From assembly GCF_001652585.1 (NCBI RefSeq), contig NZ_LWLG01000019.1:8101-40100 (forward strand): 32,000 nt of DNA, read 5' to 3'. Position numbers and translations under genes: made by a program. Below are positions 8,439-31,107 of this stretch, one piece after another; within the stretch, counting starts at the first letter, position 1; the number at the start of each line of letters is the position of its first letter. The notes under the pieces were generated by a model. That model worked only from the letters and a program-made list of their open reading frames with translations. It had not been told where the DNA came from and ran no database searches. This DNA is from Thermosulfurimonas dismutans (GTDB lineage: Bacteria; Desulfobacterota; Thermodesulfobacteria; Thermodesulfobacteriales; Thermodesulfobacteriaceae).

Positions 8439-8906
8439 TCAAGGAAGGTAAGAAATGAGCTTCCCGGAAATGTAAAGGGCACACCCCCAGAAATCCTCTT
8501 CGCATTTTAGGATAACGTATCCCGGTTCTAACTCCGCCGAAAATGGGATCTTTTTTTCCAGTCGCAGGCGATCCAGGGTTAGACGGTCAAGGATCACAAT
8601 ATTACGGGTGGCAAAGCGTCCGAATCGCTGGAGGGCCGCACTGGTAGGTTTAAGGTAACCAGAAACCTTGCGCAGGAAAAGAAGCCCTGCGGTCTGGACA
8701 CGTAAACTCTGCAAGGCTTCGAAATGTTCTGTACGGGTAAAAAGCCAGTAATTTTTGGCCGTAGCCAGAAAAAGATAGGGCTCAAAAAGCGTGGGGCTGA
8801 ATCCAAAACGCTCCTCAAGGTATCCAAGGATATGGGCTCGTTCCTCGTCGGAAACCGGTCTCGGCCATGAGGCCCGGGGATCAAGTTTTTTGATCCTCCT
8901 TTTCAC
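8439..8906 (-). CDS. conserved protein resembling the C-terminal (PUA-like) region of RsmF-type methyltransferases, encoded separately
   Basis: 155 aa with a GTG start in a GTGA overlap with the upstream methyltransferase stop. The tail (GYVILKCEEDFWGCALYISGKLISYLP) recalls the GxxLGxGKxxxxxLKNxxP ending of RsmF C-terminal domains. The assignment is by recollection only. Confidence 0.4.
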   Translation of the reverse strand: MKRRIKKLDPRASWPRPVSDEERAHILGYLEERFGFSPTLFEPYLFLATAKNYWLFTRTEHFEALQSLRVQTAGLLFLRKVSGYLKPTSAALQRFGRFATRNIVILDRLTLDRLRLEKKIPFSAELEPGYVILKCEEDFWGCALYISGKLISYLP

Positions 8907-9832
8907 ACCTGCCTCCTCAATTTAACCACAAAAAAACCTACCGCCCCTATCTCATGGGCGTAAAATCGTTTGGCCTTAACGAGCTCAGGATGAAAGGGCT
9001 TGCCCTCCCATTCGGTAAGACCAGGGTGAGAGGGTAGGGGAGCCTCCCAGGAAAGGACCTCCGCCTGCCGTTTGCGTAAGAGATAGTCCACCACGGCCTC
9101 GTTCTCTTCTGGATTTATAGTACAAGTGGAGTAAACCAGTATTCCACCTGGCCTTAAAAGATCGTAGGCCCTTACGATAAGTCCTTTCTGAATAGCGGGG
9201 AGATTAGTGTGGCCCTCCTTATGGAAAAGGAGTTCTCCTTCGTAGCCTTTGCGGTATCTTCCTTCTCCTGAACAGGGGGCGTCCACCAGAACCTTGTCGA
9301 AGGTTGTCCCTAGGGGAAACTGTTCCCCCCGATAAACGGTAGTCACTACCGAGGCCACCCCGAGACGCCTTAGATTAGCCACTAAGGCCGTGATGCGATC
9401 CAGGCGCTTGTCGTTTGCCACCACTATAGCCTGATCCTCGGTTAGTTGGGCTATCTGAGTAGTCTTGCTACCCGGAGCAGCGCATAGGTCGAGGATGATT
9501 TCCCCAGGGCGGGGATCCAAAGCATAGACTGGAAGAGAGCTTGAAAGAGTCATGGGATAGATTAATCCCAAATAGTACTCGTCGGTGTTCCCCAAGGATA
9601 TATCTCTGGGTTCTACCCTAAAAAACCAGGGCACGGCCTCCACAGGCGTAACTTCAAATCCCTGCCTCGCTAGTCCTCGGACAACCCGATCAGGATCTTG
9701 GGTCTTTAAGGTATTGAGCCTGAAATAAAGAGGTAGGGGCTCGGAAAGAGCATTCAGAAAGCTCTCATAATTGGGAATAAGATCCTGATAGCGGGAAAAA
9801 TAATCCTCAGCTAGGCTAGAAGCCTTCTCCAT
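8903..9832 (-). CDS. RsmB/RsmF (NOL1/NOP2/Sun) family RNA cytosine-C5 methyltransferase, catalytic core only
   Basis: 309 aa with the SAM-binding motif DLCAAPGSKTT and the catalytic Cys motifs DAPCSGEG and YSTCT. Confidence 0.8.
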   Translation of the reverse strand: MEKASSLAEDYFSRYQDLIPNYESFLNALSEPLPLYFRLNTLKTQDPDRVVRGLARQGFEVTPVEAVPWFFRVEPRDISLGNTDEYYLGLIYPMTLSSSLPVYALDPRPGEIILDLCAAPGSKTTQIAQLTEDQAIVVANDKRLDRITALVANLRRLGVASVVTTVYRGEQFPLGTTFDKVLVDAPCSGEGRYRKGYEGELLFHKEGHTNLPAIQKGLIVRAYDLLRPGGILVYSTCTINPEENEAVVDYLLRKRQAEVLSWEAPLPSHPGLTEWEGKPFHPELVKAKRFYAHEIGAVGFFVVKLRRQV

Positions 9833-10472
9833 TCTTTAAAATCCTCTCAAGCTTCCGGTGATCCTCAACCACCAGATCCGCCTCTTGGAGATGATGCGGA
9901 GCAAGAGTGGTAGTAATGGCGATGCACAAAAGCCCTGCGGATTTAGCCGAACGCACTCCTGCAGGGGCATTTTCTACCGCCAGGGCCTCTTCCGCAGGGG
10001 CCCCAAGCCCCGAAAGCCCGACTAGATACGGATCAGGATAGGGTTTTCGGCGGGGTACTTGGTCCCCGGTAACGATAAAGTGGAAAAGGGAGGCCAAGGA
10101 TTTTGGAAAGACCTCATCTAAGATTTCCTGATGAGAGCTGGTAACCAGGGCCAGCTTGCGTCCTTCCTTTCTTAAATCTGCAAGGAGATCCGGCACTTCT
10201 GGAAAAGGTCGTACCTTGGCCTGGTATTTTTCTTTAAAGATCTTTTTTTGAAGGGAAAAGGCCTTCTTAAAGAATTCGGGCGTAGGTTCGATCCCCTGAT
10301 TTTCAAAGAGACTCCTTGCAGTCTCAAGTTCTATAGCACCCTCATGGAGGTAAATTTCTTCCTCAGGGATGTCCAGCCCCAGCATAGAGAAGGCCTCCCG
10401 CCAGGCCCTCACGTGCCAGGGCATACTATCAAGGATCACTCCGTCTAAATCAAAGAGAAGAACCGGTTTCAT
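9816..10472 (-). CDS. HAD-superfamily hydrolase (beta-phosphoglucomutase/phosphatase-like, subfamily IA)
   Basis: It has HAD motif I (LLFDLDGVILDS), motif II (LVTSS) and motif III/IV (KP...ENAPAGVRSAKSAG). Confidence 0.75.
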   Translation of the reverse strand: MKPVLLFDLDGVILDSMPWHVRAWREAFSMLGLDIPEEEIYLHEGAIELETARSLFENQGIEPTPEFFKKAFSLQKKIFKEKYQAKVRPFPEVPDLLADLRKEGRKLALVTSSHQEILDEVFPKSLASLFHFIVTGDQVPRRKPYPDPYLVGLSGLGAPAEEALAVENAPAGVRSAKSAGLLCIAITTTLAPHHLQEADLVVEDHRKLERILKNGEGF

Positions 10473-17048: not shown

Positions 17049-17125
17049 CGGGACGTAGCTCAGCCTGGCAGAGCACTGGCTTCGGGAGTCAGGGGTCGCA
17101 GGTTCAAATCCTGCCGTCCCGACCA
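17049..17125 (+). tRNA. tRNA-Pro (anticodon CGG), CCA encoded
   Basis: I folded the cloverleaf by hand. The acceptor stem is CGGGACG/CGTCCCG and the D arm is GCTC...GAGC. The anticodon stem is CTGGC/GTCAG with loop TTCGGGA (anticodon CGG). The T arm is GCAGG-TTCAAAT-CCTGC, with discriminator A followed by CCA. Confidence 0.9.
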
Positions 17126-17740: not shown

Positions 17741-19162
17741 ATGTTTCCGGAATGGGGTTATTTACTGATGGGTTTTTTGATCGGAGGCGGGGCTTTGTGG
17801 TTACACGCCAAACGGGAAAGGAATGAACTTTTCCAGAAATTTGAAGGCCTGCAAGAAGAACTGATCCAGAAAAAGACGGAGCTGGCGCAGCTCAGTGAAA
17901 GATTGGCCCGAGAAGAGCAGTACAGAGAGAAGCTGGAGACGGAAAAGGCCGAACTCTTCGAGAGACTTGAGGAAGCCCAAAAGGAACTCGCCCTGCGGCA
18001 GGCAGAAATTGCCAAGCTCAAGGAAAGGATAACCCAGGAGGAAGAACATTTCCGGGAAAAACTCGAGATCATAGAGAAGGCCCAAAAGGAGCTGGAAAAC
18101 ACCTTCAAGGCCCTGTCTTCGGAGATTTTTCAGAAAAACACGGAAAATTTCTTAAAGCTAGCCCAGGATCGTCTTTCCGTTTTCAGAGAGGAAATTCAGG
18201 GGCAACTCAAAGCCAAAGAGGAGGCCATTGACCGGCTGACCCAGCCTATAAAGGAGGCCTTGGAGAAGGTAAACCGCGAAATCAAGGAGATGGAGGAGAA
18301 ACGAGAGGGGGCTTACAAAAGTCTTCAAGAGAGCCTCCGAAACCTGGTGGAGGTATATCTCCCAAGGCTTCAAAAAGAGACGGAAAATCTTTCGAGAGCC
18401 CTCAGACAGCCTAGAATAAGGGGCAGGTGGGGAGAAATTCAGCTAAAGCGTGTGGTAGAAATGGTGGGGATGCTTCCTAAGTGTGACTTTGAGGAACAGA
18501 CATCTTTTTCCACCGATGAGAGGACCCTCCGGCCGGACATGATCATCAGGCTTCCAGGAGGGAGGATTATTGCGGTGGACGCCAAGGTTCCCTTTGAGGT
18601 CTACATAGAGGCCATTGAAGAAGAAAACGAGGATGAGGCGCACAAAAAGATACAGGAATATGTGGCGGGGCTCAAAAACCATATTAAAAGTCTATCCCAG
18701 AAAAGATACTGGGAGGCGATAGAGTCCCGGTGGCAAAAGAGCCCGGAATTTGTCATTCTCTTTTTGCCGGCTGAAGGCCTGTTTTCGGCGGCTTTAAAGA
18801 GCGATCCCGAGATCGTGGAGTTCGGTGCCAAACACAAGGTCCTTCTGGCCACCCCGATAACCCTCATAGCCATCCTCAAGGCCGTGGCTTACGCTTGGCA
18901 GGAACAGGAGCTTGCCGAAAACGCGAGGGAGATCGCCCATTTAGGGAAGCAACTTTATGAGCGTCTTAGAGTTCTCACCGAGCACTTCAATGATCTGGGA
19001 AACAGACTAAAGCAGGCGGTAGAGGCCTACAACAAAACCGTGCGTTCTTACGAAAGCCGAATTCTGGTCACCGCCCGGAAGTTTGAGGATTTCCGCATGA
19101 TCTCCCCGGAAAAGAAAATCCCTGACTTAACCGAAATTTCCACCTATCCTTTGGAGAAATAA
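17741..19162 (+). CDS. rmuC: DNA recombination protein RmuC
   Basis: 473 aa with an N-terminal TM helix and a long coiled coil. The RmuC nuclease-like core follows (RGRWGEIQLKRVVEMVGM...RPDMIIRLPGGRIIAVDAKVP...FLPAEGLF). A TAAGGAGG SD is present. Confidence 0.85.
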   Translation: MFPEWGYLLMGFLIGGGALWLHAKRERNELFQKFEGLQEELIQKKTELAQLSERLAREEQYREKLETEKAELFERLEEAQKELALRQAEIAKLKERITQEEEHFREKLEIIEKAQKELENTFKALSSEIFQKNTENFLKLAQDRLSVFREEIQGQLKAKEEAIDRLTQPIKEALEKVNREIKEMEEKREGAYKSLQESLRNLVEVYLPRLQKETENLSRALRQPRIRGRWGEIQLKRVVEMVGMLPKCDFEEQTSFSTDERTLRPDMIIRLPGGRIIAVDAKVPFEVYIEAIEEENEDEAHKKIQEYVAGLKNHIKSLSQKRYWEAIESRWQKSPEFVILFLPAEGLFSAALKSDPEIVEFGAKHKVLLATPITLIAILKAVAYAWQEQELAENAREIAHLGKQLYERLRVLTEHFNDLGNRLKQAVEAYNKTVRSYESRILVTARKFEDFRMISPEKKIPDLTEISTYPLEK

Positions 19163-19316
19163 AAACTTTTCTATCCACTCGAAGATACGTTGTTCCCGTT
19201 CTGGTTTGTCTTTTTTGCAGGTCTATCACCGATGGAATGATATATGGTGGTAGCCTGGGGTCTACGCTTGAGATTGGGGCAGTTTGGGTGTATTAAATTG
19301 TAGTGGAGGTGATGAA

Positions 19317-19535
19317 ATGCGAGCAGTTTTGTCGGTAAGCCTTCCCGAAAAGCTGGCCAGGGAGTTGGAGGCTTTCGCCAAGGAAACCGGCCGCAATAAA
19401 AGCGATATCGTACGAGAGTCTCTAACCCTTTATCTCTGGGAAGCCCGGTTCAAGCGTCTTAGAAAGCAGCTCAGGCCTTTCGCCAAAAAGGCTGGTTTGA
19501 TGACCGAGGAAGATGTTTTTGAGCAGATTTCATGA
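19317..19535 (+). CDS. ribbon-helix-helix (CopG-family) antitoxin
   Basis: I prefer the ATG at 19317 because GGAGGTGA lies upstream. MRAVLSVSLPEKLARELEAFAKETGRNKSDIVRESL fits the RHH beta-alpha-alpha pattern. Its stop overlaps the PIN gene start (ATGA). Confidence 0.7.
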   Translation: MRAVLSVSLPEKLARELEAFAKETGRNKSDIVRESLTLYLWEARFKRLRKQLRPFAKKAGLMTEEDVFEQIS

Positions 19536-19933
19536 GGGTAGTCTTCGATACAAATGTTTTGGTGGCGGCTTTTGTCACGGAAGGATTATGTTCTGTGTTA
19601 CTCGCCCGTGCTCGTCGAGGAGAATTTGATCTTTTCGTTTGCCCGAAGATTTTGGAAGAATTTGAAAGGATTCTATCGGAAAAGATAAAAGTTCCGCGAG
19701 CCCTGATTGAAGAAGCTTTAAGTATGATCTTGGAAGCCTCCGAGATGATACAGCCCACTAGAGCCATTCAAGGAGTTTGCCGCGACGAAGATGATGACCA
19801 GATCCTGGCCTGTGCCCTTTCAGCCGAAGCGGATTACCTCGTGAGCGGGGATAAAGATCTTTTGGAGATTGGTAGCTTTGGAAACCTTAAAATCGTCCCT
19901 CCGAGAGATTTTGAGGCCTTGTTTGAGGATTAA
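19532..19933 (+). CDS. PIN-domain toxin (VapC-like ribonuclease)
   Basis: 133 aa with the acidic PIN residues in VVFDTNVL, DEDDDQIL and SGDKDLL. It is translationally coupled to the upstream RHH gene. Confidence 0.8.
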   Translation: MRVVFDTNVLVAAFVTEGLCSVLLARARRGEFDLFVCPKILEEFERILSEKIKVPRALIEEALSMILEASEMIQPTRAIQGVCRDEDDDQILACALSAEADYLVSGDKDLLEIGSFGNLKIVPPRDFEALFED

Positions 19934-20320: not shown

Positions 20321-22773
20321 ATAACGGAAAAATCACCTTGAAACAGCTCGAAACACACCTGTTTAAAGCCGCCGATATCCTGAGAGGCAAGATGGATGCC
20401 TCTGAATATAAGGAATACATCTTCGGCATGTTGTTTCTAAAGCGAGTTTCCGATGTCTTTGAGGCCAAGCAGGAAGAACTCAAAGAAAAGTTTAAAGCCC
20501 AAGGCTTTTCGGACCAGGAAGTAGAAGAACTTATCGAAGACCCCAATTTATACGCTGAGACCTTTTTTGTCCCTGAAAGGGCAAGGTGGAAGAACATCCT
20601 AAAACTTAAAGAAGATGTGGGAAACCAGTTAAACAAGGCCCTTTCCGCTTTGGAAGAACACAATCCCGAACTGGAAGGCGTTTTGAGGCATATAGATTTC
20701 AATGCGGTTAAGGGAAAAACCCGCCTCAAAGATCAGCAACTGGTGGATTTGATCCACCACTTCAATAAATACAGGTTAAGAAACGAAGATTTTGAGTTCC
20801 CTGACTTACTGGGAGCGGCCTATGAGTATCTGATTAAAGAATTTGCGGACTCTGCGGGCAAAAAAGGCGGCGAGTTTTATACTCCTTCGCAAGTAGTGCG
20901 GTTAATGGTGAGGCTTGTAAAACCGCAGGAAGGTATGACGGTGTATGACCCAACTTGTGGTTCCGGAGGTTTCCTCATCCAGGCAAGGCAGTATGTGGAG
21001 GAGCAAGGGCAGGATCCGAGAAACCTGGCTCTCTACGGTCAGGAATTGAATGGAGTTACCTGGTCGATCTGCAAGATGAATATGATTCTGCATGATATTC
21101 CCGATGCCTATATAGAGAATGAAGATACCATTACCACTCCTATGTTTGTTGAAAATGGATACATAAAGCGCTTCGACAGGGTTTTGGCCAATCCTCCTTT
21201 TTCTCAGAACTATAGCAAAGCAAACATGCAATATCCTGAAAGGTTCAAGTATGGCTTCACTCCGGAAAATGGAAAAAAAGCCGACTTGATGTTTTTACAA
21301 CACATGATCGCCAGCCTTAAGGATGATGGCGTTATGGCCACCGTAATGCCTCACGGAGTTCTTTTCAGAGGGGGGCAGGAGAAGGCCATTAGAGAAGGAA
21401 TTGTAAAGGATGACCTGATTGAGGCCATAATAGGCCTTCCCCCAAAACTTTTCTATAACACGGGCATACCTGCCTGCATCATAGTGATAAACAAGAGAAA
21501 GCCACCCCATCTCAAAGGAAAAATTCTCTTTATAAATGCTGATCGGGAATACGGAGAGGGAAGAAACCAAAACTATCTTAGGCCTGAAGACATTGAGAAA
21601 ATTGTTACCGTCTTTGAGGAGAAAAAGGAAATTCCGAAGTATTCAAGACTTGTGGATCTCAAGGAAATTGAGGAAAACGATTTTAACCTGAATATAAGAA
21701 GATACGTTGACAACTCTCCGGATCCTGAGATTGAGGACGTCCACGCCCATCTTGTCGGTGGAGTGCCCAAAAGAGAAGTAGAAATCTACAAAAAACAGAT
21801 GGAGAAGTTCAGAATCGGCCCGGAGGTTTTATTAAAGGAGAAAGATGACCGGTATTTTGAATTCAAAGAGATAAGCGAAAAAAACAAAATAAGAGAGATA
21901 GTTGAAAATCACAGTGGAGTTAAAGGAGTAATCTCAGAGCATTTTGAAAGGCTTTCCGAATGGTGGGAGAAGGTAAAAAAGGAGATAGAGGGTTTTCACG
22001 GCGGGAGCAACCTCTGGGATTTCAGAAACAGGGCAATAGCTGATTTGAAAGAAAAGTTACTGCCTCTTGGCGTTCTGGATGAGTTTCAGATTGCTGGCGT
22101 ATTTGTCAACTGGTGGGAAGCCCTGCGATACGACTTTAAGACCATCATTTCCTCCGGCTGGAGTAAAAGGCTGATTGAAGACGACAGGATTAAGAAAAAA
22201 TTCTTTTCTCAAGATTTAGAGGAGATCGAAGAGCTAGAGAGCAGGATTGCAGAAGTTGAAGGCGAACTGAACGAACTTCTAGATGAAGTTGAGGACTGGG
22301 ATGAGGAAGAATACGGAAAGAAGACCGCCAGTAAAGTGAAGAATTACCTGAAACAGATCGCCAAAGATTTGCGAGCCACTTTGCAGGAATCCGCCCTTAG
22401 AGAAGCCTCAAAGTGGGAAAGTTTGATCCAAAAAATAGAAAAAAAAGAAAGAGAACTGAGAAAGATTAAAAGAGACCTGAGAACAAAGGAGCAAGAGCTT
22501 GAAGAGAAAATAAAGCACAAGCGAGAATCTTTAACCGAAGGAGAGGCGAAAGAACTGCTCCTTGAGAAGTTTTACGATTTGATAAGCCAGCAGTTAGAGA
22601 AGTATCTGAATGCTGAAAAGAAAGACCTGATTAAGATTTTTGAGAAGCTGTGGGACAAATACAGCGTTTCACTGGAACAGTGGAAGAAAGAGCGAGATGA
22701 GGAAGTGCGAAAGCTTGACGATTTTCTGATAAGGCTGGGGTACTATGGAATATCTGCAAAAACTAGGACTTAA
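20317..22773 (+). CDS. hsdM: type I restriction-modification system methyltransferase subunit HsdM (long form with a coiled-coil C-terminal extension)
   Basis: I prefer the ATG at 20317 because GGAGTGGAG lies upstream. It has an HsdM_N region ([33 protein letters not shown]), SAM motif I ([11 protein letters not shown]) and catalytic motif IV (NPPF in LANPPFSQ). The last ~300 aa are E/K-rich coiled coil. Confidence 0.9.
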
Positions 22774-22792: not shown

Positions 22793-22957
22793 ATGAAATT
22801 TGTAAAAGAAAACAAGGTTATAACCCTGTCCTCCGCAAAAAATTTGATACCTGATGTTTCGGACAAGACACTTTATAGAGACTTGCAGGAGTTGGTTAGA
22901 AAAAAGATACTAAAAGAAATTGGTGAAAAGAAGGGAAGAAAATATGTTCCTGCATAA
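22793..22957 (+). CDS. 54-aa winged-helix/HTH protein (Fic/AlbA_2-type C-terminal wHTH-like)
   Basis: This ORF is not in the track because it is shorter than 60 aa. It reads MKFVKENKVITLSSAKNLIPDVSDKTLYRDLQELVRKKILKEIGEKKGRKYVPA. The ...TLYRDLxELVxKxILxxxGxxKGxKY pattern is a common wHTH found at the C-terminus of Fic and AlbA_2 proteins. Confidence 0.45.
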   Translation: MKFVKENKVITLSSAKNLIPDVSDKTLYRDLQELVRKKILKEIGEKKGRKYVPA

Positions 22958-23052
22958 CAGGAATTTATCAGACATAACAACCATATTTTGGGCATTTATA
23001 TGAATGGAACAAAATAAGGTGATATAGTTTAATAAGAGGAGAGATAACCGAA

Positions 23053-23868
23053 ATGTACGAAGACTGTTTTTTGGCTTACCTGGACATACTGGGTTTTAAG
23101 GATAAAATAAAAGAGACAGAAATAAACCTAAAAGAATTAAAAACTTTAATTGAAGCTTTAAAAATAAATACGAAGTTCACACAATCAGGTGGAAAAAAGA
23201 CAACAGCTAGTGGGACGCTCGAAATACGGAGTTTCTTCTTTTCAGACAGTTTCCTTTTCATGATGAAAGCAAACAAAGAAAATCTACCACATCTCTTTCT
23301 TATTATCCGGTATCTGCAAGATAGACTTTGGGAATACAAACTGTGTTTAAGAGGTGCTATGGTAAAGGGGAAGATGTACTGGCCTAATATAAGAGAGAAC
23401 ATAATTTTAGGTCCTGCTATGATTAAAGCTTATAAGCTGGAGTCTGAAGTTGCAATATACCCAAGAATAATTGTAAGCGAAGATCTATACCGCTACATCA
23501 AAGATAAGAAAATTTCTGCATATCCTGTGTCCGAAGAGGGGGAATTAAAAGAATTTATCAAAAAAGACAAAGATGGCGTTTATTTTTTTGATATACTTAA
23601 TCCAAATATTTTGAGAAAAAAAGGAGAAAAGATAATTACGATAAATGAAAGAGAAAACATGATAGATAATGATACAAAATACGGGAAGTCTTTTAGTATT
23701 ACATGGAATTCATCTGAAGTTAGTAATTACGAGAATATCATAACTACAGTAAAAGAAATAGTCAAAAATAGTAAGGGAAATCAAAATCCGGTGGTTAAGC
23801 AAAAATATAGTTGGTTGTCGTACTATTTAGAAGAAGTACAAGAAAGAGAAAAGGAGGGCAAGAAATAA
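23053..23868 (+). CDS. hypothetical protein with class III nucleotidyl-cyclase / GGDEF-like palm motifs plus an unassigned C-terminal half
   Basis: 271 aa with AGGAG ~11 nt upstream. The motif order matches a cyclase homology domain: AYLD11ILGFK (cf. FxDIxGFT), FFFSD65SFLF (cf. IGDAYM), CLRGAMVKGKMYW (cf. RIGIHTGxV) and GPAMIKAYKLESEVAIYPRIIVSEDLY (cf. GDTVNxASRMESxGxPGxIxVSExTY). Calling it a CDS is safe. The fold call is a by-eye inference. Confidence 0.5.
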   Translation: MYEDCFLAYLDILGFKDKIKETEINLKELKTLIEALKINTKFTQSGGKKTTASGTLEIRSFFFSDSFLFMMKANKENLPHLFLIIRYLQDRLWEYKLCLRGAMVKGKMYWPNIRENIILGPAMIKAYKLESEVAIYPRIIVSEDLYRYIKDKKISAYPVSEEGELKEFIKKDKDGVYFFDILNPNILRKKGEKIITINERENMIDNDTKYGKSFSITWNSSEVSNYENIITTVKEIVKNSKGNQNPVVKQKYSWLSYYLEEVQEREKEGKK

Positions 23869-24019
23869 TAGATAACATTTCTGAGGATTGTTCAAAGAAA
23901 ATAGTGGCAAAAGAGCCGGTTTCTAGTATGAGATTGTAAAGTAATTGCACATATTGCATAATGATTACACATAAATTGCACAATGAATGTAATACTAAAA
24001 GAGCAAAAAGGGTATAAAA

Positions 24020-25312
24020 ATGCCTGAAGATGTAAAAGTGTCTGAGGAGTGGAGAAAAATACCATTGCTTGAAAAGTTAGCATTTATTAAAGGTAAAGCT
24101 CCAAGAAAATTTTACAATTTCAAAGAAAAAAATACAATAAGGTATTTAACCCCTGAATATTTGCGAGGGAGAAATCACGAAACTCTTTATTGCAACATTA
24201 ATGAAGCTGAGATAGTCAATGATGATGTAGTCCTACTATGGGATGGGTCTAATGCTGGTGAAATCTTCTTTGCAAAAGATGGAGCAATTGCTTCAACTAT
24301 GGCAAAAATTGAAATTGATGAAAAATTACATAAACGATTTTTCTACTACTACTTGAAATTCCATGAACCGATTTTCAAATATCAAATAAAGGGCTCAGGA
24401 ATTCCACACGTTGAAAAGGATATCTTTGGATTGCTGCCTAATACGTTCCCACCCCTCCCCGAACAACGCAAAATCGCCGAAATTCTTGAAACAGTTGATA
24501 ACGCCATAGAAAAGACGGACAGGATCATAGAGAAATACAAGCGAATCAAGCAGGGCTTGATGCAGGATTTGCTGACCAAAGGTATAGACGAAAACGGACA
24601 GATAAGAAGCGAAGAAACGCACAAGTTCAAGGATTCGCCCCTCGGCAGGATTCCGGAGGAGTGGGAGGTTGTGGAGTTAGATGAAGTGGCAGATATAAGA
24701 CTGAGTAATGTTGATAAAAAAATTAAGCCTAATGAGGTTACAGTTAAACTCTGCAACTATCTGGAAGTTTATCAAAATGAATACATAACTTCAACACTAA
24801 ACTTTATGAGAGGGACAATCACAAAAAACGAAAAAGGAAAATTTATGATTAATAAAGGCGATGTAATAATAACAAAAGATTCAGAAACGTTTGAAGATAT
24901 TGCCAAACCTACTTATATTAAGGATGAGATAAAGGATTTGGTATGTGGTTATCATCTTTGTTTACTAAAACCGTATACCAATTTGGTTAATGGGTTATAT
25001 TTGGCTAAGATTATAGGATTCCATCGAGTGAATAAACATTTCCAGAATTTAGCAAATGGAATTACGAGATTTGGTTTATCAAAAGACACCATTGCTAATG
25101 CTTTAATCCCTCTCCCACCACTCCCAGAACAAAAACGCATCGCCTCAATTCTCTCGCAAATAGACGAAACCATTGAAAAAGAGCAAAAATATAAAGAAAA
25201 ACTTGAAAGAATTAAGCGGGGACTGATGGAAGATTTACTTACGGGAACGATCAGAGTTAGCTCTTTAATTGAGGGGGGACCGGATGAAAATAAAAAGAAT
25301 ACATATCCATAA
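24020..25312 (+). CDS. hsdS: type I restriction-modification system specificity subunit HsdS
   Basis: 430 aa with two variable target-recognition domains. They are separated and followed by the conserved helices LPPLPEQRKIAEILETVDNAIEKTDRIIEKYKRIKQGLMQDLLT and LPPLPEQKRIASILSQIDETIEKEQKYKEKLERIKRGLMEDLLTG. Confidence 0.9.
   Translation: MPEDVKVSEEWRKIPLLEKLAFIKGKAPRKFYNFKEKNTIRYLTPEYLRGRNHETLYCNINEAEIVNDDVVLLWDGSNAGEIFFAKDGAIASTMAKIEIDEKLHKRFFYYYLKFHEPIFKYQIKGSGIPHVEKDIFGLLPNTFPPLPEQRKIAEILETVDNAIEKTDRIIEKYKRIKQGLMQDLLTKGIDENGQIRSEETHKFKDSPLGRIPEEWEVVELDEVADIRLSNVDKKIKPNEVTVKLCNYLEVYQNEYITSTLNFMRGTITKNEKGKFMINKGDVIITKDSETFEDIAKPTYIKDEIKDLVCGYHLCLLKPYTNLVNGLYLAKIIGFHRVNKHFQNLANGITRFGLSKDTIANALIPLPPLPEQKRIASILSQIDETIEKEQKYKEKLERIKRGLMEDLLTGTIRVSSLIEGGPDENKKNTYP
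25172..25246 (+). repeat. hsdS 3' conserved-helix segment, copy 1 of a direct repeat (partner 27134-27208)
   Basis: By-eye alignment shows a near-identical core, GAGCAAAAATAYAAAGAAAAACTTGAAAGAATTAAGC, with roughly 85% identity over ~75 nt. Confidence 0.75.
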
Positions 25313-27044
25313 TTTTCGTTCTATAAAGGATGTAAGTATTGAATTGGAGAATTACTCTCTACTTATTGGAGAAAATAATGCTGGGAAAACAAATATTATG
25401 AGGGCGTTAAGAGTTTTTTATGATGATTTGAAATATGATCCGAAAAAAGATTGGCCCAAATTTAATGATGTTAGTGATGACGAAGCATGGATAGAGATAA
25501 AATATTTAACTACGGATGAAGAACAAGCGCAATTAAAGAAGGAGTATAGGAGCAATGACAATATTTTGAAGGTGAGAAAAATTCTAAAGACCAATAAAGA
25601 ACCGTTCAAATCGAAAGTTAAAGCAAATCAAAGCAATATTTTCGCTTATGAGAATGAAACTTTATCGGAAAATTTCTTTTATGGAGCAAAGAATATATCT
25701 CAATCTAAATTAGGGACCATTATTTACATACCCGAAATAAGTAAAATTGAGGAATCCATCAAAATGACTGGACCTTCTCCTCTTAGGAATATACTGCATT
25801 TTGTAATTAAAAAAATAATAGAAAAAAGTGAGAGTTATGCATCTCTTAGATCTGCATTTGAAGATTTTAATAAAAATTTTAAGGAAGAGTCTATTGATGG
25901 AATTTCCCTTGCAAATTTAACAGAAGAAATAAACAAAGAACTTAAAGAATGGAATGTGAAATTTGGGTTAGATATAAATCCGATAAGAATAGATGATATC
26001 ATTGCAAAACTTGTCTCTCATTATATTGAGGATAGCCAATTAGATGATCAAAGATTAAGCATTGATTCTTTTGGGCAGGGATTGCAACGACACTTGATAT
26101 ATACACTTATAAAATTATCTACAAAATATACTGATACTCCGAAAACTGCAAAAAAGGATTTTTCTCCTGATTTCACGTTAATTTTATTTGAAGAACCAGA
26201 GGCTTTTTTACATCCTTCGCAACAAGAAAAATTAAATATCAGTTTAGCTAAATTGGCAGAAGATGAAAGTCAACAGATATTAATTACAACACATTCTCCT
26301 ATGTTTGTAAGCAAAAATATAAGCAATATTTCTTCTTTGATAAAAGTCAACAGAGATAAAGAAACAAAAACTTTTCAGATCAAAAAAGAAGAAATTGATT
26401 CTTTATACGATGAGAACACTTCTATGTTTCAATTTTTCTTAGATAAATTAAATTCTCAAGATATAGGTGACGAATTAAAACAAAAAATAAGAAAGAGAAA
26501 TCTGGCAAGAGAAACAGACAATGTGGAAATCAAATTGAAAGAAGAATCTTTTAAATATTTTCTGTGGCTTGATAGCGAGAGATCAAATCTATTTTTCGCT
26601 AAACATGTTGTTATTTGTGAAGGTGCTACGGAAAAAATATTTTTTGATTATTTGATAAATACAAAATGGTCCGATCTAAAAGACCGACATATTTATTTTT
26701 TGGATTCTATGGGGAAATTTAATGTTCATCGATATATGAACCTTTTTAACTTATTGGGGATTAACCATTCCGTATTAATAGACAGAGATAAAGATATAGA
26801 AATTCACGATCTAATAAATAGCTTCATAGAAGATAATAAAAATGAATTTACCTGCAAAATACATTATTTTGACCCTGATATAGAAGGTTTTTTAGGTATT
26901 GAAAAACCAAAAGATAGTAGACAGAAACCATTAAATATAATGGTTAAATACTCAGAAGGACAAATACCTGAATCTAAAATAAATGAATTGCGAGCTATTA
27001 TAGAAGGATTATTAAAGCATGACCAAAATGTACCGCAAGCTTGA
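25284..27044 (+). CDS. OLD-family nuclease (ABC-type ATPase fused to a TOPRIM domain)
   Basis: I prefer the ATG at 25284 because GAGGGGGGA lies upstream. The N-terminus is MKIKRIHIHNFRSIKD. It has Walker A (GENNAGKTN), Walker B/D-loop (LILFEEPEAFLHP), TTHSP, and TOPRIM motifs (VVICEGATEKIFF ... LIDRDKD). It overlaps the hsdS 3' end by 29 nt and terminates inside the hsdR-5' stub. Confidence 0.8.
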   Translation: MKIKRIHIHNFRSIKDVSIELENYSLLIGENNAGKTNIMRALRVFYDDLKYDPKKDWPKFNDVSDDEAWIEIKYLTTDEEQAQLKKEYRSNDNILKVRKILKTNKEPFKSKVKANQSNIFAYENETLSENFFYGAKNISQSKLGTIIYIPEISKIEESIKMTGPSPLRNILHFVIKKIIEKSESYASLRSAFEDFNKNFKEESIDGISLANLTEEINKELKEWNVKFGLDINPIRIDDIIAKLVSHYIEDSQLDDQRLSIDSFGQGLQRHLIYTLIKLSTKYTDTPKTAKKDFSPDFTLILFEEPEAFLHPSQQEKLNISLAKLAEDESQQILITTHSPMFVSKNISNISSLIKVNRDKETKTFQIKKEEIDSLYDENTSMFQFFLDKLNSQDIGDELKQKIRKRNLARETDNVEIKLKEESFKYFLWLDSERSNLFFAKHVVICEGATEKIFFDYLINTKWSDLKDRHIYFLDSMGKFNVHRYMNLFNLLGINHSVLIDRDKDIEIHDLINSFIEDNKNEFTCKIHYFDPDIEGFLGIEKPKDSRQKPLNIMVKYSEGQIPESKINELRAIIEGLLKHDQNVPQA

Positions 27045-27126
27045 CGAAAAACACTATGCGGAAAACCCCTTCCTGGCCCAGCTCAAGAAGCTCGGCTGGA
27101 AGATTTACAGGCAGAACAAAGACAAT
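27026..27126 (+). repeat. copy A of the hsdR 5'-end direct repeat (partner 27890-27990)
   Basis: Aligned by eye over 101 nt, I count about 10 mismatches (~90% identity). Both copies start at AAATGTACCGCAAGCTTGACGA. Confidence 0.85.
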
Positions 27127-27138
27127 AAGGGAAATTGA
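27028..27138 (+). pseudogene. vestigial hsdR 5' end (33 hsdR codons followed by a premature stop)
   Basis: It encodes [36 protein letters not shown]. The intact HsdR N-terminus is [36 protein letters not shown]... Confidence 0.75.
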
Positions 27139-27244
27139 AAAGGAGCAAAAATACAAAGAAAAACTTGAAAGAATTAAGCAAGGATTGATGGAGAATTTGT
27201 TGACTGGAAAGGTGAAAGTTAATCACCTGATTAAGGATGCTTAA
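27127..27244 (+). pseudogene. vestigial hsdS 3' end (C-terminal conserved helix only)
   Basis: It encodes ...REIEKEQKYKEKLERIKQGLMENLLTGKVKVNHLIKDA*, which parallels the HsdS C-terminus ETIEKEQKYKEKLERIKRGLMEDLLTG. It is out of frame with the hsdR stub. The track ORF 27041-27244 is a chimera of the two remnants. Confidence 0.75.
27134..27208 (+). repeat. hsdS 3' conserved-helix segment, copy 2 of a direct repeat (partner 25172-25246)
   Basis: See the copy 1 entry. Both copies have the same orientation. Confidence 0.75.
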
Positions 27245-27256
27245 GTAAAGAAAATT

Positions 27257-27553
27257 ATGAAAAGCCTCGAAGAAATAAGAAAATTTATAAAGAATCAAAA
27301 AAAAGAACTGGAGCAAAGATTCGGAATCAAAACGATCGGTATTTTCGGTTCTTATGCCAGAAATGAACAAACCGAAAAAAGCGATCTGGACGTTCTTATA
27401 GAATTTAAAGAAGGATATGAGACCTTCAGAAATTACATGCAGTTAAAATTTTATCTTGAAGATAATCTCGGAATGGAAGTTGACCTGGTTATAGCTTCTA
27501 CCTTAAAAGAAAGATTGAAACCTTATATAATGAAAGAAGTCTTATATGTCTAA
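27257..27553 (+). CDS. mntA: minimal nucleotidyltransferase antitoxin (MNT/MntA)
   Basis: 98 aa. [23 protein letters not shown] is the GS-x(10)-DxD pol-beta NTase signature. Confidence 0.85.
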
Positions 27554-27908
27554 GAAAAGAAGTTTAAAGCTTTACCTTGAAGATATTCTTGAAGAGATCC
27601 AACGAATTAAAAGATTTACCGAAGGAGTTGTCAACTATGAAGATTTTAAGAATAATGAGCTGTTATTGTACGCCGTTTTGAAATCTCTGGAAAATATTGG
27701 AGAAGCAGTTAAAAATATCCCCGAAGACAAAAGAAAGTTGTACCCTTTACCCTGGAGAGAAATAGCCGGAATGAGAGATATACTTATTCATGAATATTTT
27801 GGAATCAACACCAAAATTGTCTGGGATATTATAAAAACTGAATTGCCGGAACTTGAAAAGGCCATTGTTTTCTTGATTGAAAAGGTCGGAAATGTACCGC
27901 AAGCTTGA
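27546..27908 (+). CDS. hepT: HEPN-domain toxin (DUF86/HepT)
   Basis: 120 aa with the Rx4HxY motif in [11 protein letters not shown]. It overlaps mntA by 8 nt. Its last codons (NVPQA*) lie inside the hsdR 5' end. Confidence 0.85.
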
Positions 27909-27990
27909 CGAGGAACACTATGTAGAAAACCCCTTCCTTGCCCAACTTCAAAAGCTCGGCTGGAAGATTTACAGGCAGAACAAAGATAAT
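27890..27990 (+). repeat. copy B of the hsdR 5'-end direct repeat (the functional hsdR start)
   Basis: See the copy A entry at 27026-27126. Confidence 0.85.
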
Positions 27991-30900
27991 CCTGAAGAGG
28001 TCAGAGAAATCCTCTCCTTCAACCCCTCTTTTGAGCCCGTTTATGGTGGCTACGAAAAATTCAGAGAAAGTTTTAGAGAAGTAATCCTTGAGTATGTTCT
28101 GAAAGACTCGATAAAGAGAATAAACCCTTGGATCGAAGAAGACCAGATTAACGAGGTCGTAAGAAGAATCACCACGCCTACCGCAAACTCTCTCCTTGAG
28201 GCCAATAGAGAAATTCACGATCTTCTTTTAGAAAACACTTCGGTTTCTGAAAACAGAAAGACCGGAGAAAGAAGCCCCACCGTAAGATTTATTGACTTCG
28301 AGAACCCGGAAAACAATTCTTTTATAGCCATCTCGCAATTCAAGGTGAACATCCCCGGAACAGAGAAGCACATTATTCCGGACATCGTTCTTTTTGTAAA
28401 TGGCTTGCCTTTGGTAGTTGTGGAATGCAAATCTCCCGCTATAGCCGACCCGATGACAGAGGCCATTACCCAGCTCATGCGATACAGCAATCGGCGAGGC
28501 GAGAAGGAGGGGAACGAAAAGCTCTTCTGGTACAATCTCTTCATGGTGGCTACCTCCAAGCAGGTAGCCAAGTACGGCTCCATCACCGCGGGATACGAGC
28601 ACTTTGTGGAGTGGAAAGCCCCCTATCCCTTCAGTTTGTCAGATATAGACGAAAACAAGACCTCGATCACAAGTCAACAGGTTCTAATTCAGGGAATGCT
28701 CTCCAAAAATAACCTGCTGGATATTCTCCACACCTTCACCCTTTTCAAAGAGGATTCAAAAGGCGGAACCATAAAGGTCGTTCCGAGGTATCAACAGTTT
28801 AGAGCAGTTAAGAAGATCATAAAAAGGATAAAACAAGGCCAAACTCCGGCCGAAAGGGGAGGAATTGTCTGGCACACCCAGGGTTCAGGAAAATCTCTTA
28901 CCATGATGTTCACTGTAAGAGCAATGTATCACGATCCTGAACTTGCAAACTTCAAAGTAGTTTTTGTCACCGACAGAAGAGATCTGGAAAAGCAACTGAG
29001 AGAGACCTCAAAAAGTGTTGGCTACACGGTAAAGCTCGCCCATAACATAGAAAAACTCAAAGAATTGCTAAGAACGAACACACCTGATCTGGTTATGGGA
29101 ATGATCCATAAGTTTCAGGAAAGGGAACTTAAAAGAAAGTTTCCCGTGCTCAATGAATCTCCCGACATTCTAATAATGATTGATGAGGCTCACAGGACGC
29201 AGTACAAACTTTTGGGAGCCAACTTAAGAAAAGCCTTACCCAACGCCACCAAGATTGCTTTCACAGGCACGCCCATTGAAAAGACCGAAAAAACTTTCGG
29301 AGACTACATAGATAAGTACAGCATAAGGCAGGCGGTTGAGGATGGGGTAACCGTTGAAATTGTTTATGAAGGAAGGGTTCACAGTGCGGAACTTTCGGAT
29401 GAAGAGGCGGTGAATGCAAAGTTTGAAGACGTTTTCTCCATGCTTGACGCCGAGCAGAAGTCAAGGATCATGGGGAGATACACGTGGAGGGCTTATCTTG
29501 AGGACGAGAACGTCATCAGAGATAAAGCCAAAGATATGATTGACCATTATGTGAAACACGTTTTTCCTAACCGTTTCAAGGCTCAGGTGGTTGCGGTTTC
29601 AAGACTTGCGGCCATAAGGTACAAAAAAGCCCTGGAAGAGGCCTTGAAGGAGAAAATTGAAGAGCATGAAAGGGAAGGCTACCCGGATGAAGGTTTGAAA
29701 CTGCTCAAAAGATTAGAAGTGGCCACGGTTATATCTGCGGCGGCGAATGACCCTCCAGAGTATCGCCCCTACACTGACCCCAAAGAACATGAGAGGGTTA
29801 TTAAAAGCTTTAAACTTCCTTTTGACCAAACTGACGATAGCGGCCTTGAAGGAAATGTAGGCATTATTGTAGTAAATAATATGCTTATAACCGGTTTTGA
29901 TGCCCCACTGGAACAGGTAATGTATCTTGATAATGTAATAAAAGAACACAATTTGCTACAAGCAATTGCCAGAGTCAATAGAGTTTACCAGGGCAAAAGT
30001 TGTGGCTTTGTCGTTGATTACGTAGGGGTGCTTAAGCATCTTAGAGAAGCGCTAGCTATTTATGCGGATGAAGATATCGATGAAATAAGTCAAGTAGTTG
30101 TTAATAAAGCGAAAAGCGTTGATGAATTAAAATTCTGGCATACCCATCTTGACAGCTTCTTTGAAAAATTTGGTGTTGAGAACTGGAGAGAAAATATTGA
30201 CGAATGCATAGATATTCTTGTTGATGAAGAAGTTAGAGATGAATTTATAACTCTCGTCAGAAAATTTAATAATGCCGTAGATAAAGTGCTCCCGGATCCA
30301 GAAGCTCTAAAATATGTTACAGATTTGAAAATCATAAATTTCATTAAAGAATCCGCTAGAAATAGATATAGAGATGACAAGCTCAGTATAAGAGATGCAA
30401 GTAAAAAAATAAGAGAAATTGTCGAAGAATATCTTATTTCGAAGGGGGTTGACCCAAAGATTCCTCCTACTCCACTCTTTTCTGAGAGCTTTATACAAAA
30501 AGTTAAAAAGAAAAAATCGCCCAAAGCGAGAGCAGAGGAACTCAAGTATGCAATTATAGAACACATAGAGAAACACTATGAAGAAGATCCTGAATTTTAC
30601 GAAAGATTTTCAGATAGATTGAAAAGGATACTTGAGGAATACAAGGAGAATTGGGAATTGCTTGCTGTTGAGTTAGAAAAGCTTAGAAACGAGATGAAAA
30701 AGGGTAGAGAGGCAGAAGAAACATTTGGTTTTGATCCCAAGAAAGAAATGCCATTTTTTGGGTTACTCAAGCAGGAGATATATGGGAAAGATCCCATTGA
30801 AAAACTTGGAAAAGATGACATCGATTTACTTGTGAGTTTAACAAAAGATGTTGTTGAAATCATCAAAAAAGAGATTCAATATGTTGATTTTTGGGATAAT

Positions 30901-31107
30901 TACACCAAGCAAAAAAGATTGAAGGCCTACCTCATTTCTCATTTCCTGGGGGCTATCCAGCCAAACAAACCTTCCAAAACCCATGTTTTTAAGGTGAAGG
31001 AGGAACCGGCACCATATCTTACCACCCATAAGGGTCTACTGTTCAGAAAAAGGAACGAAATAGCTCAAAAATTGCTGGAACTCGCATATCATGTTTATGC
31101 GGGATGA
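27892..31107 (+). CDS. hsdR: type I restriction-modification system endonuclease/translocase subunit HsdR
   Basis: I prefer the ATG at 27892, since the track start at 27877 is a TTG. It has a PD-(D/E)xK nuclease motif ([18 protein letters not shown]), helicase motif I ([11 protein letters not shown]) and a DEAH box (MIDEAHRTQ). It also has later SF2 motifs ([19 protein letters not shown]) and a helical C-terminal domain. Confidence 0.92.

Follow-up and report, generated by a model that had tools for sequence, protein, structure and literature searches.

A gene for a 271-residue protein, lodged between hsdM and hsdS of a type I restriction-modification (RM) operon in Thermosulfurimonas dismutans, probably encodes a cyclase-fold toxin of the PanT type that has no Panacea antitoxin and is specialised for RM operons. 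We analysed this gene within a stretch of 32,000 nucleotides of contig NZ_LWLG01000019.1, referred to here as the window. Its product, the window protein, matches a hypothetical protein of T. dismutans at 100% identity. A sequence-only reading of the same DNA had described the gene as an orphan with the motifs of a nucleotidyl-cyclase domain, and as part of an undescribed arrangement. The comparisons presented below retain the domain, but link the protein to a toxin that has been studied in the laboratory.

Sequence and profile comparisons establish that the window protein is homologous to this validated toxin. It matches gp8 (YP_293707.1) of the P2-like Burkholderia prophage phi52237 in BLASTP (2e-14), and hhalign aligns the two with 99.6% probability (E 2.2e-24) over 233 columns, which is nearly the full length. 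The gp8 gene lies beside an integrase, 3 nt downstream of the gene for gp9, a DUF4065 protein, and the gp8/gp9 pair is the validated toxin-antitoxin system PanA/PanT(Bur. phage) (Kurata et al. 2022, PMC8832971). In that study HHpred assigned PanT to the adenylate/guanylate cyclases with 97% probability. PanT alone halted the growth of E. coli, and direct binding by PanA neutralised it. The toxin affected mainly transcription and then translation, left ATP unchanged, lowered GTP slightly and induced ppGpp in a RelA-dependent manner (PMC8832971). Within the collection of papers covered, our literature search for later work on the cyclase-like toxin or for a named defence system found nothing past this 2022 paper.

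The window protein and PanT belong to the same family over nearly their full length and share a predicted cyclase-like fold, the motifs DILGF, FSD, RG, GPA..Y..E and PR, and a location on mobile or defence DNA. They differ in that only 27% of their residues are identical, that PanT carries an N-terminal extension of ~45 residues which the window protein lacks, and that the window protein carries a 33-residue insertion (residues 186-218). Their genetic settings differ as well. PanT is encoded beside a Panacea antitoxin and a prophage integrase, whereas the window gene resides within a type I RM operon and has no DUF4065 (Panacea) antitoxin among its neighbours. A phmmer search with gp9 found no PanA homologue in the open reading frames (ORFs) of 105 loci that carry relatives of the window gene.

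Judged by its homologues and its predicted structure, the reading frame is a real gene and more than a chance ORF. An AlphaFold2 model made with 39 homologues (pLDDT 91.8, pTM 0.90) has the element order beta-alpha-alpha-beta-beta-alpha-beta-alpha-beta of the cyclase homology domain. When this model was compared with the Protein Data Bank (PDB) by Foldseek, the best 50 matches were all catalytic domains of class III adenylyl or guanylyl cyclases (E 2e-5 to 6e-4, probability 1.00, target-normalised TM <=0.64), among them sAC, CyaC, sGC, Rv1900c and Ma1120, with the Pycsar uridylate cyclase 8jsz at rank 49. On the strength of the model, we regard the cyclase-homology fold as established.

Direct sequence searches yield far fainter signals. 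The window protein gave no significant match in Pfam, NCBIfam, PADLOC or the sequences of the PDB, it reaches no Pfam threshold, and the Pfam model Guanylate_cyc (PF00211) did not match it at E<=10. The same model matches four of the 39 relatives weakly (best E 9.4e-4), and UniRef labels one family member ‘Guanylate cyclase domain-containing’. A profile of diverse homologues returned a single match among the PDB sequences, a coiled coil that we judged spurious. A profile built from 110 diverse homologues returned 11 sub-threshold PDB matches, seven of them cyclases, which served to set the register of the motifs and not as proof of homology. These alignments place DILGF on FxDIxGFT, FSD on IGD, RGaitiG on RIGxHxG, and GPAxxxAYxLES on GDxVNxAxRxES. 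When aligned to the GC-C profile, D65 falls on the Asp within IGDAYM, and D11 falls on FsDIvGF.

A relationship to GGDEF diguanylate cyclases or to mCpol proteins was also considered and set aside. Neither the window protein nor its relatives match GGDEF in Pfam, and the hairpin that would carry the signature reads FSDS instead of GG(D/E)EF or GGDD. GGDEF proteins did appear as structural matches, although only weakly, in the viral library BFVD (E 0.03-0.06) and below the cyclase domains, which are the best matches of the model.

The predicted active site combines strict conservation of the metal ligands with the loss of residues that cyclases use for ring closure. Among the 110 diverse sequences D11, D65, G101, G120, E130 and P137 are invariant, R100 and R138 are kept in 109, and S64, D174, K251 and W254 are, like these two arginines, nearly invariant. 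The window protein retains every one of these invariant and near-invariant residues. At the position of the transition-state Asn it carries Ile124 (family I55/V36/N10/L5, thus Ile or Val in 91 of 110), and at that of the transition-state Arg it carries Lys128 (E41/K23/D9/R6). The base-specifying position, four residues before the second metal Asp, is F61 (T33/S18/R10/Q8/F7), and neither the Lys of adenylyl cyclases nor the Glu of guanylyl cyclases is present. The KGKG hairpin of the cyclases reads DxDG. The two-metal site is kept and the cyclisation-specific machinery is lost, and a nucleotidyl-transfer chemistry other than cyclisation is plausible.

Much of the sequence-only reading is borne out by these data. 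The ORF lies where it was placed between hsdM and hsdS, and the motifs AYLD11ILGFK, FFFSD65SFLF, CLRGAMVKGKMYW (residues 98-110) and GPAMIKAYKLESEVAIYPRIIVSEDLY (residues 120-146) are found at the residues given for them. Their assignment to cyclase motifs was correct as well, because the profile alignments put each of them on its cyclase counterpart. The proposed palm fold agrees with the Foldseek result, both metal Asp residues are retained and prove invariant across the homologues, and the replacement of Asn and Arg by Ile and Lys and the absence of the base-specifying Lys were read correctly. The description of residues ~160-271 as an unassigned K/E/N-rich tail holds only in part. Residues 160-185 form the last beta-hairpin of the cyclase domain, since the alignment puts D172-x-D174-G at the KGKG hairpin, while the remainder is additional to that domain. 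It comprises the insertion, which contains two strands in the model (residues 193-198 and 212-217) and is missing from distant family members, and the C-terminal helices of residues 219-271.

The window gene, as its homologues indicate, is not an orphan but a member of a very large unnamed family. An indexed search returned 374 homologues, and an exhaustive search at E<=1e-3 returned 4,454 clusters at 50% identity, nearly all of 230-330 residues. The family extends across many bacterial phyla and into archaeal metagenome-assembled genomes. It is also carried by plasmids of Bacillus, Acinetobacter and rhizobia and by P2-like prophages of Burkholderia, and it is not covered by any model of Pfam, NCBIfam or PADLOC v2.0.0. 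With PADLOC v2.0.0, including its HEC models, the window protein gave no match at E<=10, and eight other members and gp8 gave none at E<=0.01. Among the PHROGs, the window protein and other members hit phrog_23933 and phrog_21097, neither of which has an assigned function. A search for informative fusions (‘Rosetta stone’ proteins) among ten longer family members revealed no informative additional domain.

To describe the genetic context of this family we collected 132 loci, of which 105 remained after de-duplication and 100 had a callable family gene. Relatives with at least 40% identity to the window protein were treated as a close clade. A type I-like gene is present within four genes of the family gene in 19 of 31 close-clade loci compared with five of 69 distant ones, and it is directly adjacent in 15 of the 31. 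When only loci with at least 3 kb on both sides are counted, linkage is found in 5/7 close-clade and 3/29 distant loci. RM linkage also follows the insertion at residues 186-218, as 17 of 38 loci with it and two of 34 without it are RM-linked (Fisher 1.6e-4, a value that ignores kinship and draws on many short contigs).

The typical position of these relatives is downstream of hsdM and directly 5′ of hsdS, and overlaps of the stop codon with the hsdS start codon are frequent (L002/L043, L056/L057, L061, L066 and L009, where L numbers denote individual loci). A count of Pfam families in 144 immediate neighbours is led by Methylase_S (8), N6_Mtase (6) and HsdM_N (4), followed by RM-operon cargo such as RhuM, Fic, HATPase_c_4/AlbA_2, Eco57I and others. 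The top 25 Pfam families of these neighbours include no cNMP-binding (cyclic nucleotide monophosphate-binding), TIR or DUF4065 family, and in this survey the family has no conserved partner gene. In relatives, the same RM slot is also occupied by Fic, RhuM, ORF6N and AlbA_2 genes. Distant members reside within defence islands or on mobile DNA, where their neighbours are Abi_C, Mrr, NUDIX, GmrSD, SIR2, CHAT, RES or resolvase genes.

Several individual arrangements among the relatives are worth recording. In L004, L067 and L068, clade members are located between a methyltransferase of ~1,150 residues of the Eco57I/TaqI_C/MmeI type and a PLD-SNF2 helicase of ~1,120 residues, and therefore are embedded in another kind of restriction-like operon. 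Tandem pairs of family genes occur in L030 (7944-9540, between hsdM and hsdS) and L077 (987-2438). We rejected the idea that these form degenerate heterodimers comparable to mammalian C1/C2, as all four copies retain both metal Asp residues. The four copies also keep R100 and R138. In L034, L036 and L038 (Bacteroidota/Ignavibacteria), a gene for a ‘Beta_protein’ (PF14350) of 355-362 residues lies downstream of a distant member and in the same orientation, at about 8650-9900, and a conserved opposite-strand gene of 249-256 residues that has no Pfam match comes next. This arrangement is a possible lineage-specific partnership. Many apparent small ORFs downstream of relatives were discarded, because they are N-termini of HsdS or HsdR cut at contig ends.

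The features of the window gene and its neighbours are compiled in the table. HsdM is unusually long, in that its N6_Mtase match stops at residue 470 and is followed by ~350 K/E-rich, coiled-coil-like residues (about 21720-22773) that have no Pfam match. The HsdM of L040, a syntenic locus whose family member is 81% identical to the window protein, has 829 residues and is built likewise. A scan with an E. coli-type consensus found no plus-strand terminator between hsdM and hsdS, and the window gene is therefore probably co-transcribed with the hsd genes.

Features of the window gene and of the RM operon that contains it (positions in the window).
Feature	Position	Strand	Basis
hsdM, 821 aa	20308..22773	+	Pfam N6_Mtase 1.5e-109, HsdM_N 2.7e-33
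54-aa winged helix-turn-helix (wHTH) ORF, remnant C-terminal tail of an AlbA_2/HATPase_c_4/wHTH gene	22793..22957	+	Identity to L053; DNA alignment
Shine-Dalgarno sequence GAGGAGAG, 9 nt 5′ of the ATG	23036..23043	+	Read from the sequence
Gene for cyclase-fold, PanT-like protein, 271 aa	23053..23868	+	ORF call, homologues, AlphaFold2 model, Foldseek, homology to gp8/PanT
Predicted cyclase-homology (palm) domain, residues 1-185	23053..23607	+	Secondary structure of model, invariant columns, profile alignments to Rv1625c and GC-C
Predicted metal ligand D11	23083-23085	+	Invariant column
Predicted metal ligand D65	23245-23247	+	Invariant column
Key residues of palm domain: R100/G101, G120, E130, P137/R138	within 23053..23607	+	Conserved columns
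Acidic hairpin D172-x-D174-G in place of the cyclase KGKG loop	23566-23574	+	Alignments
Clade-specific insertion, residues 186-218, beta-hairpin RKKGEKIIT...FSITW	23608..23706	+	Homologue alignment; model
C-terminal two-helix extension, residues 219-271, family signature QKYxWLxxY (K251, W254)	23707..23865	+	Alignments, model
Degenerate small-ORF remnant	23865..23939	+	Comparison with L053 and L054
hsdS	24020..25312	+	Pfam Methylase_S 2.4e-39
Class 1 OLD-family nuclease	25269..27044	+	AAA_15 and OLD-like TOPRIM; PADLOC Old 5e-62
hsdS fragment, 67 aa	27041-27244		ORF list
MNT/HepT toxin-antitoxin pair, between hsdS and hsdR	27257-27908	+	Neighbour annotation
hsdR, completing the type I RM system	27877..31107	+	Pfam HSDR_N, SWI2_SNF2, T1RH-like_C

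The middle of the operon has been rearranged. The AT-rich patch reported by the sequence-only reading is real, with a GC content of 0.28-0.37 across ~22.5-28 kb compared with 0.44-0.48 in hsdM, hsdR and the flanks, and this drop makes the middle of the operon look foreign. The wHTH ORF, which has no Pfam match of its own, had been noted as flanking the window gene. It is the end of a deleted AlbA_2/HATPase_c_4 gene. It shares 93% identity with the 54 C-terminal residues of a protein fragment encoded in L053 (L053:1-495, cut by the contig end), which carries HATPase_c_4 and clusters with AlbA_2/HATPase_c_4 proteins of 461-544 residues. Fragments of such a gene are located just upstream of the family member in both L053 and L054. 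A role for this ORF as a regulator or antitoxin was therefore rejected as the principal explanation.

The region downstream of the window gene (23865-23990, +) is degenerate as well. In L053 (1470-1646) and L054 (1498-1674) an intact 58-aa ORF beginning MVDDISEGCSKK... overlaps the stop codon of the family member and runs to the start of hsdS. In the window its ATG has become ATA and a stop follows after 24 codons, and we rejected this small ORF as an antitoxin since its conservation is low and the window copy is disrupted. The gap between the window gene and hsdS is 151 nt, whereas in relatives hsdS begins inside or right at the end of the family gene. Three or four TTGCACA-like repeats at about 23944-23985, just 5′ of hsdS, could constitute an operator. 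In L040 a gene at 8952-9290 (+) between the family member and hsdS encodes a 112-aa protein of multi-pass-membrane-like character that has no Pfam match and is absent from the window.

The hsdS gene is followed by OLD, the hsdS fragment, MNT/HepT, hsdR and a YgjP-like peptidase gene, with the OLD start overlapping the end of hsdS by 44 nt. In L040 the order is hsdM, the homologue, two small ORFs, hsdS, MNT, HepT and hsdR. The OLD gene is absent from this locus, and an OLD-like gene is present in the flanks of just one other locus, which indicates that OLD is an independent insertion. MNT/HepT are kept at the same place in L040 (64-66% identity) and thus are older residents of the operon than OLD. 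Two pairs of direct repeats flank the OLD insertion. The 3′ end of hsdS is duplicated (25172-25259 and 27134-27221, 83%), and a repeat of 101 nt links the end of OLD with the start of hsdR (27026-27126 and 27890-27990, 90%). The repeats explain why NVPQA is the C-terminal sequence of OLD as well as of HepT. Taken with the 67-aa hsdS fragment, they point to a recombination or insertion event that would have brought OLD into the operon. Farther upstream, a tRNA-Pro(CGG) gene (17049-17125, +) divides the housekeeping genes for IMPDH, T2SS F, ResB and a CLC channel from the hsd side, where RmuC and an RHH-PIN toxin-antitoxin pair (17741-19933) precede the hsd locus. This tRNA site is possibly the edge of an integrated island.

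On balance, we lean towards the view that the window gene is abortive-infection cargo of a type I RM operon and encodes a toxic nucleotidyltransferase that is PanT-like and self-contained. The putative enzyme would bind a nucleoside triphosphate (NTP) and perform two-metal nucleotidyl transfer, and either the reaction product or the modified target would itself be toxic. The product would not be a second messenger for a partner effector, because the toxicity would reside in the product or target, and PanT strikes transcription first. The gene would be carried for defence in the operon's variable middle, expressed together with hsdM and hsdS, and its toxin would be an abortive-infection back-up if restriction fails. 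Because the window has no Panacea antitoxin, the enzyme would have to be silenced by other means, such as intrinsic auto-inhibition or sequestration by the HsdM/HsdS complex. Of the options offered by the sequence-only reading, the ‘single-protein sensor-effector’ is still the best.

A number of points weigh against this assignment. The toxicity of the window protein is extrapolated from a homologue with 27% identity, and the product of PanT itself was not identified (PMC8832971). A toxin that lacks an antitoxin needs some mechanism of control. The counts that show enrichment near RM genes ignore phylogeny and include many short contigs. Two clade members have no RM genes in the DNA covered, namely L005 (45% identity, 8 kb on each side) and L041 (71% identity, 8 kb downstream and 590 nt upstream), and RM linkage is therefore not obligatory. 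A scan of viral contigs with clade patterns found no relatives. Finally, the promoter and terminator scans applied an E. coli-type consensus to a Thermodesulfobacterium-like genome.

The window protein may be functionally tied to the RM complex, and in the most explicit form of this proposal HsdM/HsdS would act as the ‘antitoxin’ that cages the toxin until Ocr, ArdA or Stp-like peptides release it. We consider this form doubtful, although much of the genomic evidence is compatible with it. Most close-clade loci have type I genes nearby, the slot directly 5′ of hsdS involves overlapping stop and start codons in L056/L057, L061, L066, L009 and L002, the insertion tracks RM linkage, and no antitoxin gene is present. 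There are also precedents in PrrC, which T4 Stp frees from EcoprrI, and in RonA of the Ronin system, which kills on its own but is kept in check by HsdMS until Ocr/ArdA triggers it (bioRxiv 10.1101/2023.04.06.535777). However, L005 and, as far as its DNA reaches, L041 have no RM genes nearby, three members are situated beside an Eco57I-type methyltransferase instead, and the window gene is uncoupled from hsdS. Moreover, unrelated cargo (Fic, RhuM, AlbA_2) uses the same slot, so the position alone may reflect an insertion hotspot. A further elaboration holds that the clade consists of non-cyclase nucleotidyltransferases that would make a toxic nucleotide of a new kind or nucleotidylate the transcription or translation machinery, and that these enzymes would be caged by HsdM/HsdS via the 33-residue insertion and released by phage anti-restriction proteins. 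For such an enzyme the remodelled active site may comprise the two metal Asp residues, the family-specific Arg138 and the acidic DxDG in place of KGKG. This combination of proposals is rather unlikely as a whole.

Two other explanations assign the gene a different role. Improbable in our estimation is that it is non-defensive or decaying cargo with no current role in immunity, either as a selfish element for addiction or stabilisation or as a remnant that has been silenced. The rearranged surroundings speak for this view, as the upstream gene is truncated, the small ORF on the downstream side is degenerate, and both an hsdS fragment and direct repeats are present. Genes of the toxin-antitoxin type are also able to persist as addiction modules. 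Yet the reading frame is unbroken and preceded by a strong ribosome-binding site, all invariant and near-invariant residues of the family are retained, related operons carry intact close homologues of 81-85% identity, and a toxin that lacks an antitoxin cannot work as a classical addiction pair. Even less probable is a signal-generating cyclase similar to that of Pycsar, whose cyclic nucleotide would activate an effector elsewhere, be it OLD, the RM complex or a generic cNMP receptor. The fold, the pair of metal Asp residues, the presence of the uridylate cyclase 8jsz among the structural matches and the UniRef label of one member all speak for a cyclase. Against it stand Ile or Val at the Asn position, Glu, Lys or Asp at the Arg position, the missing base-specifying Lys and the altered phosphate loop. 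Furthermore, PADLOC finds no PycC match in the window protein (E<=10) or in eight other members (E<=0.01), no cNMP-binding, TIR or transmembrane effector recurs among the 144 neighbours, and PanT is toxic in E. coli free of any partner (PMC8832971). The sequence-only reading had proposed a signal to the neighbouring nuclease, and this suggestion fails because OLD is missing from the syntenic L040. The same reading was correct in noting that no cNMP-binding effector is encoded nearby and that the locus is not Pycsar.

We return to the preferred reading of a self-contained toxin to consider its significance. The family is widespread in bacteria, archaea, plasmids and prophages. The window protein is annotated only as hypothetical, and the chemistry of the sole member studied, a potent toxin, was never solved. 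The coexistence of a kept metal site with lost cyclisation residues, in a clade that resides in RM operons and has no antitoxin, raises the questions of what the toxic product or target is and whether the RM complex serves as antitoxin or sensor. An answer to either one would give abortive-infection immunity a new class of enzymatic effector and would account for a common unannotated gene of defence islands. Should HsdM/HsdS indeed cage the toxin, the clade would represent a third and enzymatic kind of ‘anti-anti-restriction’ guard beside PrrC and Ronin.

Among known systems, the closest structural counterparts are the class III cyclases (PF00211; for example Rv1625c, CyaC, sAC and sGC). They share with the window protein the palm fold and the order of its elements, the metal Asp residues on beta1 and on the beta2-beta3 hairpin, and, in the same order, the RxG...G strand and the G..(x)..A...E helix. 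Unlike them, the window protein falls below the Pfam threshold and lacks the Asn/Arg pair, the base-specifying Lys/Glu and KGKG, and its family has the invariant or near-invariant residues E130, P137, R138, K251 and W254 and a C-terminal helical extension. In Pycsar, too, a protein with the class III cyclase fold occurs in a defence setting, but this system pairs the cyclase PycC with a TIR or transmembrane effector activated by cNMP. No cNMP-binding effector is found among the window neighbours HsdM, HsdS, OLD, MNT/HepT and HsdR, no PycC model matches, and the homologue PanT is toxic by itself.

Defence genes embedded in type I RM operons are documented (PMC11411939; 10.1101/2024.01.29.577857). 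The genes found through ‘guilt by embedding’ in type I RM, BREX and Hma operons, including TgvAB and HEC-01 to HEC-09, share with the window gene a variable cargo slot. The two papers mention no cyclase-fold gene, and no HEC model matches the window protein. Finally, PrrC and RonA differ from the window protein in fold, as PrrC is an ABC-ATPase/anticodon nuclease and RonA a 61-aa membrane peptide, and in that their control by HsdMS is known whereas here it is only hypothesised. What they have in common with it is a toxin-type gene within an hsd operon, the absence of a dedicated antitoxin and, in some relatives of the window gene, tight coupling to hsdS.

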